Origin: Chloroflexota bacterium
GTDB taxonomy: Bacteria > Chloroflexota > Dehalococcoidia > Lucifugimonadales > UBA3495
Assembly (NCBI GenBank): GCA_027623675.1
Contig: JAQBVF010000021.1
Location: 11,955 to 75,954 of the forward strand
Direction: 5' to 3'
Length of the DNA: 64,000 nt
A program made the translations under genes and the position numbers. The notes under the pieces are model-generated. The model was not told the origin of the DNA, searched no databases, and saw nothing but the letters and a program-made list of their open reading frames with translations. Positions 26,253 through 30,434 of this stretch are shown piece by piece (within the stretch, counting starts at the first letter, position 1; the number at the start of each line of letters is the position of its first letter).

Positions 26253-27419
26253 TTAGGCCAGCACCCGGTAGCGGTAACTGGACTCCAACAGATCGCCTTC
26301 TTGGAACCGGCTGAAACGCAGCGGCGAGATATCCAAGGTGTTGGAGACCCCCTCGACGATCAGCTCCGCCAAGGTGACCCCGATCATGGGGGAGAGCTTG
26401 AAGCCGTGGCCGCTGAAGCCCACCGCGCAATACAGGCCCTCGATGCCGGGCACCGCATCCAGAATGGGGTGCCAGTCTGGCGTCGTGGTGAATAGGCCCG
26501 ACCAGCCGCCCCGATAATAAGCCTCAGACATTGCCGGTATGCGCCGCGCCAACCGTCCCAAAGCGTCGGCCATCACGTCCATATCCACGCCCTGGTTGTA
26601 GGTCTCCACCTCCACTTCCTCCTCGGGGCCAAAACCCATCATGGTCAGGGAGTTGCCGTCGGGCCGGAAGGAGAAAGACTGGGCAATGTCTCCCACCGTG
26701 GGATGCAGCGGCAGCTTGTCCACCGGACGTGTCAGGGAAGCGACTTGGTGCCGCACGGGCACCAAAGGCACGTCCACGCCCATTTCACCCAACACGCGCT
26801 TCGACCATGGACCCGCCGCCACCACGGCCACGGGGGTCTCCACCCTACCCTCCGGGGTCACGACAGCCCTGACCCGGCCGCCGGAGACTTCGATGTGGGT
26901 GGCCTCGTTCCTCAGGGTGATCTCCGCACCCATCTCCCTGGCCCTGGCCGCGTAAGACGTGGTTACCATATAGGGGTCGGCGTATCCCGACTGGGGCTCC
27001 CAGGCCATGTATTCGTCGTCGCTCACCGCAACCATGGGCGCGATGTCCCGCAGGTCGAGGGCGGTGACCCGCATGGTGTCGATGCCCAGGTCGTACTGCA
27101 TCGCCACGTTATGGGCCAGCCCGGCGCTGTCATCTTCCTTCACCACCACCAGGTAGCCAGTCTCAACGAACCCCGACTCTCCGCCCACCACCTCATTGAA
27201 GTTGGTGAAGATGCCCAGACTCTCCCAGGCCATCTTGGCGGTTATGGGGTTGGAATAGTGCATCCGGCAGATGGCCTGCGAGCGCCCGGTAGAGCCTGAG
27301 CCGAGCACGTCTTTCTCCAACAGCAGGGTGTCGGTCACGCCCAAGCGGCCCAGGTTGAACAGGATGCTGGTCCCGATCACGCCGCCGCCAATCATTACTA
27401 CATCAGCCGTCGCTTTCAT
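26253..27419 (-). CDS. FAD-dependent oxidoreductase (sarcosine oxidase beta / DAO family)
   Basis: IGGGVIG, GSGSTGRS, TPDWHPIL, GFSGHGFKLSP. Confidence 0.9.
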   Translation of the reverse strand: MKATADVVMIGGGVIGTSILFNLGRLGVTDTLLLEKDVLGSGSTGRSQAICRMHYSNPITAKMAWESLGIFTNFNEVVGGESGFVETGYLVVVKEDDSAGLAHNVAMQYDLGIDTMRVTALDLRDIAPMVAVSDDEYMAWEPQSGYADPYMVTTSYAARAREMGAEITLRNEATHIEVSGGRVRAVVTPEGRVETPVAVVAAGPWSKRVLGEMGVDVPLVPVRHQVASLTRPVDKLPLHPTVGDIAQSFSFRPDGNSLTMMGFGPEEEVEVETYNQGVDMDVMADALGRLARRIPAMSEAYYRGGWSGLFTTTPDWHPILDAVPGIEGLYCAVGFSGHGFKLSPMIGVTLAELIVEGVSNTLDISPLRFSRFQEGDLLESSYRYRVLA

Positions 27420-27536
27420 TTCTCGTCCGCCTTTCTTATTCCCCTCTTTTGGTGTAGCAGTCCCGGCTTAACCGACTATACAGGCATGGCTGTGGCATGG
27501 AAACACCGCGGTATCTCGGCTTTCCCGACATGATTG

Positions 27537-27565
27537 TTGACAGTCTTTTATAGCTGGAGTAGACT
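27537..27565 (+). promoter_or_regulatory. Sigma70-type promoter
   Basis: TTGACA (27537-27542), 17-bp spacer, TAGACT (27560-27565). Confidence 0.75.
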
Positions 27566-27573
27566 CGATGACA

Positions 27574-27642
27574 ATGGTGAAGGTAAACCGAATCCCCGCC
27601 GCGTCTTGTTGTACCTGTACACGTTACATAGGGATCAGATAA
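27574..27642 (+). CDS. Cysteine-rich leader peptide MVKVNRIPAASCCTCTRYIGIR (alternative ATG 27568)
   Basis: Translated by hand; TGT TGT ACC TGT at 27607-27618; ATG at the predicted +1; precedes an attenuator and sulfite reductase. Confidence 0.75.
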   Translation: MVKVNRIPAASCCTCTRYIGIR

Positions 27643-27690
27643 CCTTCTGCGAAAAATAGACCTCATCTAAAACGACAGTTAGGAACCCCT

Positions 27691-27728
27691 GAGCCCGCCA
27701 ATGCGAAGAGTTGGTGGGTTTTTTATTT
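27691..27728 (+). terminator. Leader attenuator (intrinsic terminator) of the sulfite reductase operon
   Basis: GAGCCCGCCAAT / GTTGGTGGGTTT stem followed by a T-rich tract, about 20 nt before the TTG start. Confidence 0.8.
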
Positions 27729-27749
27729 GCCCAAAATTCGGAGGACAAG

Positions 27750-29585
27750 TTGACTAGCCAGACCGGACAAACCAAGACCGTGGAAGCCATCTACGATGAG
27801 AGCCTGGAGCTCTCCAAGAATTCTACAAGCATCATTCCCTTCCTGGACGACGAGATTGGGCGGTTGGAGGAGGAGGCAGCGGCTTTCGTGGCCGGCGAAA
27901 GGGAGAACACGGAATTTACGCCCTTCCGTCTGAAGCAGGGCGTCTACGGCCAGCGTCAGGCCGACGTGCAGATGATCCGGGTTAAGCTGCCCGGCGGTAT
28001 CATCACCACCGAAGCCATGGATACCCTGGGCACGTTCGCCGAGCAGTACGCCCCCCTGGGCAAGGGCCACATCACCACCAGGGAAAACTTCCAGTTCCAC
28101 CACGTCCCACTGGCCCAGTGCCCCGACGCCCTGAGACTGCTTGGTTCGGCTGGCCTGAGCACCCGCGAGGCCTGCGGCAACGTGGTGCGGAACGTGGTCG
28201 GCGCGCCTAGCTCCGGGATCTGCGCCTCCGAGGTCTTCGACCCCACGCCTTACCTGGCCGCCTACGTGCGCTTCGCCGTGCGCCATCCGATAACCCAAGC
28301 ATTCCCCCGCAAATTCAAGTCGGCTTTCACCGGCTGCGACGCCCACGACCATGTCGCCGCCGCCATCCAAGACCTGACCTACGTGTCACAGATCCGCGTG
28401 GAGAACGGCGTTGAGAAGCGCGGATTCAAGGTGTTTGTCGCCGGCGGGACGTCCATCATGCCCCGGCTGGCCAAACCTCTATACGACTTCCTGCCCGAGG
28501 AAGATTTCCTCCGGCTGGCCCTGGCCCTGTTCACCGTATTCAACAACGCCGACATGCTGCGCAAGAACCGCATGATGGCCCGCTTGAAGGTGCTGGTGGA
28601 CAAGATCGGCCTGGAAGAGTTCAAGGTCCTGGTCGAAGCCGAACTGGAAAAGATCGGACCCATCGACCCCAAGCCTTACATGCACGTTGAAGAATTGATG
28701 CGGGAGACCCCTCCCGAACTGGCCTCCAATGGCCATCACGACCATGACGGCGGCGATTACGCCAAATGGCGCGACACCAACGTCGAAGCACAGAAGCAAG
28801 AGGGCTACTACGCGGTACACGTGAAGCCCGAACGCGGCAACATCACCGCCGATCAGTTCCACGGCCTGGCCCGGATCATGGGCAAGTACACCGGCGGCCG
28901 GGCCCGCGCCAGCCAAGAGCAGAACCTGCTCCTGCGGTTCGTGCCCGAGCATCTGCTGCACGACGTCTGGTCCGAGCTTACCGACCTCGGCCTGGCGGAA
29001 CCCGATGCCAACAGCATCTCCAACGTGGTCTCCTGCCCCGGAACCGATAGCTGCAAACTGGGCATCACCTCCTCCATGGGACTGGCGGGGGCGCTCAAGC
29101 AGGAGATTCAAAGCTGGGACGGCCTGCTGGACGACCAGGGCGTCAACGACATCCGCATCAAGATGAGCGGTTGCCCCAACGGTTGCGGCCTGCACCACAT
29201 CGCCAATATCGGCTTCCACGGCGCCGCGGTGAAGGGCGCCGACGGCCAGCAGGTGCCCGCTTACGAGATGTTCTTGGGCGGCAACTACGGCGGCAGCAAT
29301 GTCCAGGATTCCCGCATCGGGACCCGGATCCCAAGGGTCAAGATTCCCGCGAAGTCGGTCCCCGGCGTGCTGAAGGACGTGGTCTCCTACTACAAGAACA
29401 ACCGCTCCGACGGCGAGAGCTTCAACCAGTTCTTGGACCGGGTGGGCGTGGAAGAGGTCTCCGCGGTTGCCACCAAGGCTCAAGACGCCGTGGCCGCCGC
29501 GACCCCAGGCTCCGACCTGTATATCGACTGGGAACGCTCCAACCTGTACAAGCTGGAGAGGGGCGAGGGCGAGTGCGCGGTCTAG
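27750..29585 (+). CDS. Ferredoxin-type sulfite/nitrite reductase hemoprotein (CysI/Sir-like)
   Basis: FRL.QGVYGQRQ, HITTR, REACGN.VRNV, PRKFK, SCPG...C, KMSGCPNGCG.H; GGAGG RBS before TTG 27750. Confidence 0.9.
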   Translation: MTSQTGQTKTVEAIYDESLELSKNSTSIIPFLDDEIGRLEEEAAAFVAGERENTEFTPFRLKQGVYGQRQADVQMIRVKLPGGIITTEAMDTLGTFAEQYAPLGKGHITTRENFQFHHVPLAQCPDALRLLGSAGLSTREACGNVVRNVVGAPSSGICASEVFDPTPYLAAYVRFAVRHPITQAFPRKFKSAFTGCDAHDHVAAAIQDLTYVSQIRVENGVEKRGFKVFVAGGTSIMPRLAKPLYDFLPEEDFLRLALALFTVFNNADMLRKNRMMARLKVLVDKIGLEEFKVLVEAELEKIGPIDPKPYMHVEELMRETPPELASNGHHDHDGGDYAKWRDTNVEAQKQEGYYAVHVKPERGNITADQFHGLARIMGKYTGGRARASQEQNLLLRFVPEHLLHDVWSELTDLGLAEPDANSISNVVSCPGTDSCKLGITSSMGLAGALKQEIQSWDGLLDDQGVNDIRIKMSGCPNGCGLHHIANIGFHGAAVKGADGQQVPAYEMFLGGNYGGSNVQDSRIGTRIPRVKIPAKSVPGVLKDVVSYYKNNRSDGESFNQFLDRVGVEEVSAVATKAQDAVAAATPGSDLYIDWERSNLYKLERGEGECAV

Positions 29586-29609: not shown

Positions 29610-30434
29610 TTGGCTCCTTCGCTGAAAGGTAAAACGATCGCTTATGTCGAGGCCCGCATGCTCTCTCAGATGGGGGCCTTGATTGAGCGTAACGGTGGCA
29701 CCCCCTACCCGGCCCCGGTGCTGCAGGAAGTACCACTGGGCGACACCCCCGAGGTGATTCGCCTGGTTGGCGACCTTTGCTCCGGCAAGGTGCAGGTTAT
29801 GGTCTTCCAGACCGGCGTTGGCACCCAAGCGCTCTTCGACAGCGCCGCCTCCCAGAGCCAGGAGGCCGAACTGTTGGGCGCCCTGGCCAGCGCCACCGTG
29901 ATTGCGCGCAGCCCCAAGCCGGCGGCGGTCTTGAGGCGGCACAAGGTCCACATCGACCAGATGCCCCCGGAGCCGTTCACCTCGGCGGACTTGATTTCCG
30001 CCATCCAAGAGTTGGACCTGGCCGGGAAAGAAGTGGCGATACAGGCCTATGGCGGTCCCAATAGTCTGCTGACCCAAACCCTCCAGCAGCGGGGCGCCAC
30101 CGTGCGCGAGGTCTCGCTCTACACCTGGGGCATACCCGAAGACATCACCCCGGTGCTGCGCCTGATCGATGCTCTGGAGAATGGCCGGATCGACGCCTTG
30201 GCCTTCACCAGCCAGCCACAGGTGGCCAACCTCCTGGCCATCGCAGCACAGGCCGGCAAGGAAGAATCGCTGAGGGAGATACTGAGCAATGGTCCCGTGG
30301 TAGTGGCGTCGGTGGGTCCCGTCTGCACCAAGCGCATGCTGGCCGCCGGATTCAGGGTGGACCTAGAGCCGGACCACCCCCACATGGGCAACCTGGTCTT
30401 GGCCTTGGCGGAACGGTTCGATCCCGGCGGGTAG
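29610..30434 (+). CDS. Uroporphyrinogen-III synthase (HemD-like)
   Basis: FQTGVG, AR.PKP, Y.W..P, FTSQPQV, SVGPV; follows a siroheme enzyme. Confidence 0.8.
   Translation: MAPSLKGKTIAYVEARMLSQMGALIERNGGTPYPAPVLQEVPLGDTPEVIRLVGDLCSGKVQVMVFQTGVGTQALFDSAASQSQEAELLGALASATVIARSPKPAAVLRRHKVHIDQMPPEPFTSADLISAIQELDLAGKEVAIQAYGGPNSLLTQTLQQRGATVREVSLYTWGIPEDITPVLRLIDALENGRIDALAFTSQPQVANLLAIAAQAGKEESLREILSNGPVVVASVGPVCTKRMLAAGFRVDLEPDHPHMGNLVLALAERFDPGG

Follow-up and report, generated by a model that had tools for sequence, protein, structure and literature searches.

A probable cysteine-codon attenuator before a sulfite reductase gene of a Chloroflexota bacterium, and a second, peptide-conserved leader type sharing its RNA switch

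Introduction

Why should a short, cysteine-rich open reading frame (ORF) and an intrinsic terminator stand between a promoter and a sulfite reductase gene? The question is raised by a locus in a 64,000-nucleotide (nt) stretch of DNA from a Chloroflexota bacterium (GTDB lineage Bacteria; Chloroflexota; Dehalococcoidia; Lucifugimonadales; UBA3495; GenBank assembly GCA_027623675.1, contig JAQBVF010000021.1, positions 11,955 to 75,954 of the forward strand); we call this stretch the window and number positions from its first nucleotide. An earlier sequence-only reading had proposed that the element is a cysteine-sensing attenuator. The anatomy, conservation, and computed folding described here make it very probable that the element is a ribosome-mediated transcription attenuator of the trp/his type which gauges charged tRNA-Cys; most likely, sulfite reductase would be made only when cysteine is short. 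We also describe a second type of leader, marked by a conserved peptide, that precedes the same RNA switch at other loci.

Results

Anatomy of the leader

All of the features described lie on the plus strand. A sigma-70-type promoter (27537–27565; TTGACA at 27537–27542, a 17-nt spacer, and TAGACT at 27560–27565) matches the consensus at 10 of 12 positions and is followed by a 22-codon ORF (27574–27642; ATG at 27574, TAA at 27640–27642), which would be translated from a leaderless or near-leaderless transcript. Its presumed control codons, C12, C13, and C15, are all UGU (27607–27618; TGT at 27607, 27610, and 27616). Segment 2, the 5' strand of a predicted antiterminator (27631–27649), overlies the final codons of the leader together with its stop codon; segment 3, its 3' strand (27681–27696), includes the base of the 5' arm of an intrinsic terminator with a 12-pair stem, a 7-nt loop, and a U-tract (27691–27728; stem 27691–27721). 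Within these segments GGGATCAG at 27631–27638 pairs with CTGAGCCC at 27689–27696 at 7 of 8 positions. The 5' part of the leader could also pair with segment 2 in a possible 1:2 protector (27579–27647). The ribosome-binding site (RBS) of the reductase, GGAGG, is at 27740–27744, and its TTG start codon is at 27750. The sequence-only reading had described the promoter, the ORF with its three TGT codons, the terminator, and the 7-of-8 pairing, and every one of them was found where it had placed them. It had also put the ATG at the expected +1; the ATG does lie 8 nt past the −10 box, but the transcription start is probably 0–2 nt further upstream.

TGT is, as had been claimed, the rare codon in a TGC-preferring genome: it makes up 936 of 5113 cysteine codons (18%) in the long ORFs of the window genome, which is 61% GC. 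Cysteine accounts for 23% of leader codons versus 0.86% genome-wide. The genome has a single tRNA-Cys(GCA) gene, and UGU is therefore read by wobble. We also note that miaB is present in the window genome (G000:C43:34180–35439). MiaB-type, sulfur-containing tRNA modification aids the reading of U-starting codons, and sulfur status could possibly slow UGU decoding by this second route.

Conservation at sulfite reductase loci

The reductase was found in 51 of the 61 genomes searched. At the 30 best loci (the window's own, 18 from the same genus, and 11 from other genera) TTGACA, the 17-nt spacing, and a near-invariant TAxxxT −10 box are followed 7–9 nt later by an ATG opening a 15–22-codon ORF, without exception, and 29 of these ORFs contain 3–6 cysteine codons. 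An alternative in-frame ATG at 27568 was rejected as too near the −10 box; it is present at just 2 of the 30 loci. Four further loci of the family also carry the leader, giving 34 of 34 family loci, 33 of them with 3–6 cysteine codons. In other families of the order (a set leaving out G055, whose gene is at the contig start), leader and terminator were found, partly by eye, at 12 of 16 loci; of the remaining four, one is truncated where its contig ends, one is degenerate, and the leader is missing from two. Outside the order, the module was seen within about 900 nt at none of 20 loci (4 of the same class and 16 of other classes, out of 28 matches), a search that misses leaders further upstream where the reductase is not the first gene; one of these loci, L184, has a three-Cys ORF without a U-tract terminator.

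The leader peptides are 12–24 amino acids (aa) long, their N-terminal halves cannot be aligned across genera, and in two members of the genus (L012 and L017) a one-base difference shifts the frame past the Cys cluster relative to the other members. The constant feature is the position of the cysteine codons, which immediately precede a G-rich segment lying at the stop codon or close to it. The last of these cysteine codons is UGU in 19 of 19 leaders of the genus, 13 of the 14 scored from other genera, and all 28 moeB-cysM leaders described below. Relatives keep the in-frame 3' cysteine codons together with antiterminator and terminator, as the sequence-only reading had expected.

To align the antiterminator, we used 40 sequences hand-picked for alignability from about 100 elements. 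In these, 90.9% of the antiterminator cells were paired, a value reached by none of 500 shuffles and compared with 33–55% for slid controls; the covariation score was equaled by 5 of 500 shuffles, and one pair occurs as G-C, U-A, and C-G. Within the genus 93.3% of antiterminator cells were paired, and the terminator was 92.3% paired with three two-sided pairs (19 genus sequences). A proposed extension of the antiterminator helix, CCT-T-CTG with CAG-TT-AGG, held in part: CCT/AGG is conserved (96.5% of cells paired), but CTG/CAG appears, by eye, to be particular to the window genome.

Several variations were seen among these loci. The attenuator has apparently decayed or been lost at L043, L048, L049, L159, L162, L163, L165, and L166. 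In L050 two Cys-rich ORFs stand in tandem before one reductase. In L056, L061, and L062 a Cys-rich ORF lies between reductase and cysH, its ATG overlapping the reductase end, and is followed by a terminator; this arrangement may give the operon a further, internal attenuator that is coupled by translation. Palindrome-like TTGAC...GTCAA sequences lie over the −35 box in the promoters of L125, L171, L199, L200, and L202; they occur also in distant genomes without the attenuator, are not evident in the window promoter, and are possibly a repressor site.

Switch geometry and proposed mechanism

The predicted terminator (−17.5 kcal/mol, z −4.43) was matched by none of 200 shuffles and the antiterminator (−14.4 kcal/mol, z −2.0) by 7 of 200; at the window locus the GGG/CCC antiterminator and the terminator are mutually exclusive. 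We modeled the ribosome by masking RNA through the 12th nt after the first A-site base, an assumed footprint. For a transcript extending to 27715, which stops short of the closing GGG of the terminator, the probability of the GGG/CCC antiterminator was 0.99 with the A-site at S11 to C15 and fell to 0.00 for all positions between R17 and the stop codon; the boundary between these two outcomes lies just past the last cysteine codon. The geometry of the earlier proposal, in which a ribosome stalled at the cysteine codons permits the antiterminator and one at the stop codon permits the terminator, computes as it had been drawn. Outside the genus, a predicted 1:2 protector, joining the region of the last cysteine codon to segment 2, is strong and better than permuted (−15.9 versus −14.8 for permuted pairs, 2 of 5000 permutations).

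We propose that RNA polymerase would start at or just before the AUG, and we infer that a ribosome would load at the 5' end. When cysteine is plentiful, this ribosome would reach the stop codon and cover segment 2, so that the terminator could form and transcription would end about 20 nt before the reductase start. When cysteine is short, the ribosome would wait at UGU with segment 2 just outside its footprint; left free, segment 2 could then capture the base of the terminator 5' arm ahead of synthesis of the closing GGG, and polymerase would continue into the sulfite reductase operon.

The signal at the window locus alone is modest, since three cysteine codons in 21 are expected with P ~0.03 at the local base composition; it stands above chance because of its conservation, at 30 of 30 best loci and 4 of 4 further family loci. 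A number of results weigh against the proposed mechanism. The sequence-only reading had called for covarying pairs, and although the antiterminator pairing is conserved, two-sided changes are few: they occur in only 2 of 8 pairs in the 40-sequence set (216 of 500 shuffles were as high) and in 1 of 11 within the genus. In the full transcript the terminator had a probability of 0.94–1.00 in every ribosome state, and once the closing GGG was transcribed its probability was 0.97–1.00 whatever the ribosome state. As the terminator wins at equilibrium, the switch must be kinetic; classical attenuators are generally held to be kinetic switches. The 1:2 protector is weak in the window genome (−14.2 kcal/mol, z +0.75), where its local duplex has an energy of −3.1, as opposed to −15.9 on average outside the genus. 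Among those other genera, the energies of cognate 2:3 pairs were no better than permuted ones (592 of 5000), both strands being near-invariant, and the fixed-register protector was 73.8% paired, with 100 of 500 shuffles as high. When ribosome positions were scanned automatically for an antiterminator probability above 0.5 at a cysteine codon and below 0.25 at the stop codon, this behavior was found in 11 of 19 genus, 5 of 14 family, 3 of 9 order, and 4 of 28 moeB leaders, in a scan whose terminator borders were often imprecise and included flanking hairpins. Finally, most members of the genus have one cysteine codon only 9 nt upstream of segment 2, and a stall there would therefore partly mask segment 2.

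Further copies in the window genome

A promoter-anchored scan of the window genome found two further elements, so that the element recurs before three cysteine-synthesis operons. One, with three cysteine codons and a terminator, precedes moeB/moeZ-cysM (G000:C28:13200–13360, minus strand; L074, L205), which we take to be a sulfur-carrier route to cysteine; the cysM gene scored above the cut-off of the cysKM model. The other, with one cysteine codon, precedes cysH (G000:C15:22030–22190, minus strand; L053, L204), a gene scoring above the PRK02090 cut-off. As a control, 1511 upstream regions of the genome gave 51 pairs of a short ORF and a terminator, and at least three cysteine codons were found only before the reductase and moeB-cysM. 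A profile of the switch found exactly three loci at E values up to 0.001, namely reductase, moeB-cysM, and cysH, the next match being at 0.61; the first two are found by construction or as close kin, whereas the cysH leader (E 0.001) was outside the alignment and is independent. By eye, none of the 21 leaderless short ORFs from the promoter-anchored scan is an obvious attenuator for another amino acid.

Of 30 moeB-cysM loci, 28 have the leader, and the other two are cut by contig ends. Among cysH-like loci, 11 of 21 have a promoter-led Cys leader and 3 more have an internal one overlapping the reductase stop codon. Among 121 genomes, just 1 other than the window genome yielded close homologues of its cysH, which suggests that the cassette may move between lineages.

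Two other sites in the genome deserve mention. Between its only Rrf2-family gene and the moeB-cysM promoter is a transposase-like ORF, identified by eye (G000:C28:13458–15427); in relatives such as L095, the Rrf2-family gene and this promoter appear adjacent, and repression may be superimposed on attenuation at moeB-cysM. A cysS-like gene, also identified by eye, has a leader (G000:C2:133950–134222; L203) in which a T-box-like word accompanies a short one-Cys ORF, and this leader gave neither an Rfam nor a switch-profile match.

The regulated genes

The RBS and gene controlled at the window locus (27740–29585, plus strand) encode a NirA/Sir-type sulfite reductase of 611 aa from TTG 27750, with PF01077 and PF03460 domains. 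The protein scores below all NCBIfam cut-offs; we regard its substrate as sulfite rather than nitrite because cysH lies directly downstream of the reductase gene in several relatives. A uroporphyrinogen-III synthase-like gene (29610–30434, plus strand; PF02602) begins 24 nt past the reductase stop codon, is probably cotranscribed, and may serve siroheme supply.

Alternative explanations

Four other explanations were considered. The best of them, which we nevertheless hold to be very improbable, is that the nascent Cys-rich peptide itself senses metal or redox state through CxC and stalls the ribosome at a C-terminal Pro-Pro, in the manner of CruR, acting on the same RNA switch. Many leaders do end in C-x-C-P-P-T-stop, and CruR uses CXXC together with RAPP for copper (PMC9426467). 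The window peptide, however, lacks Pro-Pro, and the number and spacing of cysteines vary among leaders. The C-rich codons differ in the amino acids they specify (PL, LP, SL, PR, PH) yet remain complementary to segment 2, which points to pairing of the RNA. The last cysteine codon is UGU far above genome use, a preference that a peptide-level sensor would not need, and sulfur genes predominate among the named genes downstream, which include no metal transporter.

Slightly less credible still is control of the terminator by an unknown ligand-binding RNA or RNA-binding protein, the ORF being incidental. It would be consistent with the nucleotide-level conservation of segments 2–4 and with the putative status of leader translation. 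Against it, the spacing between −10 box and start codon is fixed in each of three gene sets, which comprise 33, 28, and 24 distinct promoters, and the in-frame cysteine codons alternate between TGT and TGC in peptides that cannot be aligned. The spacer of the element varies in length and sequence, leaving no conserved aptamer-like region. Rfam covariance models matched no family at the window locus (best E 4.6), and the cysS, cysH, and moeB leaders of the window genome had no match with an E value of 1 or less; its three T-box matches are all on contigs other than that of the window locus.

We give even less weight to translational control in the mycobacterial style, with the cysteine codons pairing to the ribosome-binding region of the reductase and a stalled ribosome freeing it. 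The minimum-energy fold of 27574–27750 does pair them with GGACAAG beside the start codon, but that fold has an ensemble frequency of 0.008 and is absent from the centroid, the GGACAAG partner is not conserved across the family, and a conserved U-tract terminator lies in between. We accordingly rejected sequestration of the Shine-Dalgarno site by the cysteine codons, a pairing with low ensemble frequency and no conservation. In the last alternative the terminator is constitutive and follows a small protein or small RNA that has its own function, with the reductase transcribed otherwise. This would fit the dominance of the terminator at equilibrium and is just as improbable, as only about 20 nt separate U-tract and start codon, no other plus-strand promoter was found in 26500–28500, the upstream gene is divergent, and the peptide is unconserved apart from its cysteine codons.

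A second leader type

The cysH leader of the window genome and three gene-anchored leaders (L022, L035, and L054) share the peptide RFxDDLFHLC, encoded with many synonymous differences; in the window-genome copy one motif residue is Pro. The motif is absent from the window, whose leader is of the other type and has no such peptide conservation. Searched with a degenerate pattern, 401 genomes of the order gave 62 matches, spread over 49 genomes, versus 1 for the reversed control, and UGU was used in 59 of the 60 matches with a cysteine codon, UGC having been allowed. Among 51 distinct copies, some of which have UGU by construction, the Asp codons of the motif mostly end in C (GAC in 44 of 51 and 39 of 51), and His is CAC in 32 of 47. 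Arg is found nine codons upstream of Cys, a position outside the search patterns, in 48 of 51 copies, which between them use five Arg codons drawn from both blocks. In the core, codons differ synonymously 674 times and nonsynonymously 160 times, versus 327 and 360 times for codons 2–11 of the window genus (pairwise counts, which are not independent). RFxDDLFHLC is conserved as amino acids and anchored on the presumed stall codon; we place the anchor at Cys because the extensions N-terminal to the motif differ among copies, some of which are tandem and internally started. About ten residues roughly span the exit tunnel up to its constriction.

In a gene-anchored, motif-blind survey of a sister family, covering 27 reductase loci in 28 genomes, every locus had a leaderless ORF, 26 of the RFxDDLFHLC type and one of the multi-Cys type. 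Of the 26, 24 have the cysteine codon, always UGU, one is frameshifted, and one has Trp. At reductase loci of the window family, the peptide type occurs once in 34. Both types are present in the window genome, and at orthologous reductase loci they have replaced each other in both directions (1 of 34 and 26 of 27). The RNA switch downstream of the RFxDDLFHLC leader is the same as that behind the multi-Cys leader. Reductase loci that have lost the terminator show a relaxed peptide motif: five loci of one genus without a canonical terminator have two motif substitutions each, and no substitution is seen at 17 of the 21 loci that have a terminator, an association that counts as one event.

The genes under motif leaders are the reductase, cysH, ThiF/MoeB, a cysteine-dioxygenase-type cupin, TauE, a 1-Cys peroxiredoxin, DUF454, and two unknown proteins. 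Of the 23 motif matches in metagenomes, 18 are, by eye, short leaders, all with UGU, and 22 of 22 public records with a related motif come from Dehalococcoidia or SAR202. Nothing in the literature searched, which did not cover subscription journals and supplements, contained DDLFHL.

It is conceivable, at somewhat less than even odds in our judgment, that the RFxDDLFHLC peptide prolongs or creates a stall at its one hungry codon, making it a candidate arrest peptide; alternatively, the peptide might protect against peptidyl-tRNA drop-off or function in trans. Just as tentatively, we suggest that one RNA switch is common to the sulfur-assimilation operons of the order and is driven by two interchangeable sensors, either a run of cysteine codons in an arbitrary peptide or the RFxDDLFHLC arrest peptide. 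In such a two-sensor arrangement the peptide, lying in the exit tunnel, would make a single UGU a cysteine gauge, or it might instead sense free cysteine or another sulfur metabolite directly.

Individual peptide-type loci show further features. Two complete attenuators of this type precede TauE in L124 and L151, and in L130–L133 a second motif copy, with Cys for His, lies behind the first terminator. A secreted-looking protein of about 450 aa is repeatedly found under a peptide-type leader (L114, L116, L118, and L208–L227; L114 without a Pfam match) and is a candidate for organosulfur scavenging. The cysteine-dioxygenase-type cupin occurs under such a leader in L119–L123; its induction on cysteine shortage would fit a sulfite-supplying thiol dioxygenase, not a cysteine-destroying one. 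In L068 and L106 a motif copy with Tyr for Cys and no terminator lies just upstream of cysH inside the operon and is probably a relic.

Discussion

Among classical attenuators cysteine has been a gap: the one demonstrated case that we found, in mycobacteria, is translational, and the sole terminator-coupled case found in print is a prediction for a tRNA synthetase. The family described here offers more than 100 natural variants of a 180-nt unit and a regulon of several operons, and its leaders mark cysteine-supply genes of an abundant, largely uncultured marine lineage, including a dioxygenase, the TauE transporter, a peroxiredoxin, and unknown proteins. If RFxDDLFHLC stalls ribosomes, it would represent a new class of arrest peptide, and codon-run attenuators and peptide sensors would then exchange on one RNA scaffold.

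Lopatovskaya et al. (2010) reportedly predict attenuators in Chloroflexi for other amino acids, which could bear on novelty. The literature covered by our search holds no description of a Cys attenuator for Chloroflexota or for sulfite reductase, and the accessible portions of Naville and Gautheret 2010 (PMC2965389) and Korolev 2016 (PMC4833913) have nothing on cysteine leaders. To that extent the novelty claimed by the sequence-only reading stands, but a Cys upstream ORF (uORF) with an intrinsic terminator had already been predicted before Rhodobacterales cysS (PMC8632094). The Cys-codon attenuator is therefore not categorically new; what appears new here, and absent from the literature searched, is the peptide-conserved second leader behind the same switch.

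As summarized in 10.1101/834739, the classical leader-peptide attenuators are those of E. coli trp and Salmonella his. The window element resembles them in having a short leader ORF with control codons for the amino acid of the pathway, an antiterminator overlapping the terminator 5' arm, and a U-tract, as well as control codons one footprint upstream of segment 2 and, in most relatives, a possible 1:2 protector. It differs in that cysteine is the control amino acid, the leader ORF would begin at or next to the 5' end of the transcript, a single module serves several operons, and the protector is weak in the genus. The Rhodobacterales element, uORFC-8-2, combines a Cys-codon uORF with two stems and a U-run, predicted to act as an intrinsic terminator (Brewer 2021, PMC8632094); stalling was proposed at its cysteine codons, which are tandem at codons 14–15 and mostly UGC. 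As described, it belongs to Alphaproteobacteria and stands only before a tRNA synthetase gene, whereas the window element belongs to Dehalococcoidia, precedes biosynthetic operons, uses mostly UGU, has an explicit antiterminator, and matches no Rfam family; we do not count it as a member of uORFC-8-2.

The RFxDDLFHLC leader calls for another comparison. TnaC and SpeFL are ligand-responsive arrest peptides, and we know of no sequence likeness between RFxDDLFHLC and these two or CruR. The resemblance to all three (for CruR, PMC9426467) is in having about ten conserved residues that end at the presumed stall codon and in indifference to the residues before the conserved stretch; the differences are the lack of a RAPP-like motif and the use of an intrinsic terminator rather than Rho.

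The closest parallel to the regulon as a whole is the mycobacterial Ms5788A class, in which leaderless poly-Cys short ORFs (sORFs) precede several cysteine-metabolism operons as a ribosome-coordinated regulon and unmask a Shine-Dalgarno site (Canestrari, 10.1101/834739). The mycobacterial cases are treated as translational (PMC13236596), and for actinobacterial cys leaders Seliverstov 2005 reports, in its accessible portions, no conserved terminator hairpins (PMC1262725). To judge from these accounts, the window genome shares with that class its predicted leaderless-type Cys-codon sORFs heading several cysteine operons of one genome and departs from it in output, which at the window locus would be a conserved intrinsic terminator, the Shine-Dalgarno pairing not being conserved.

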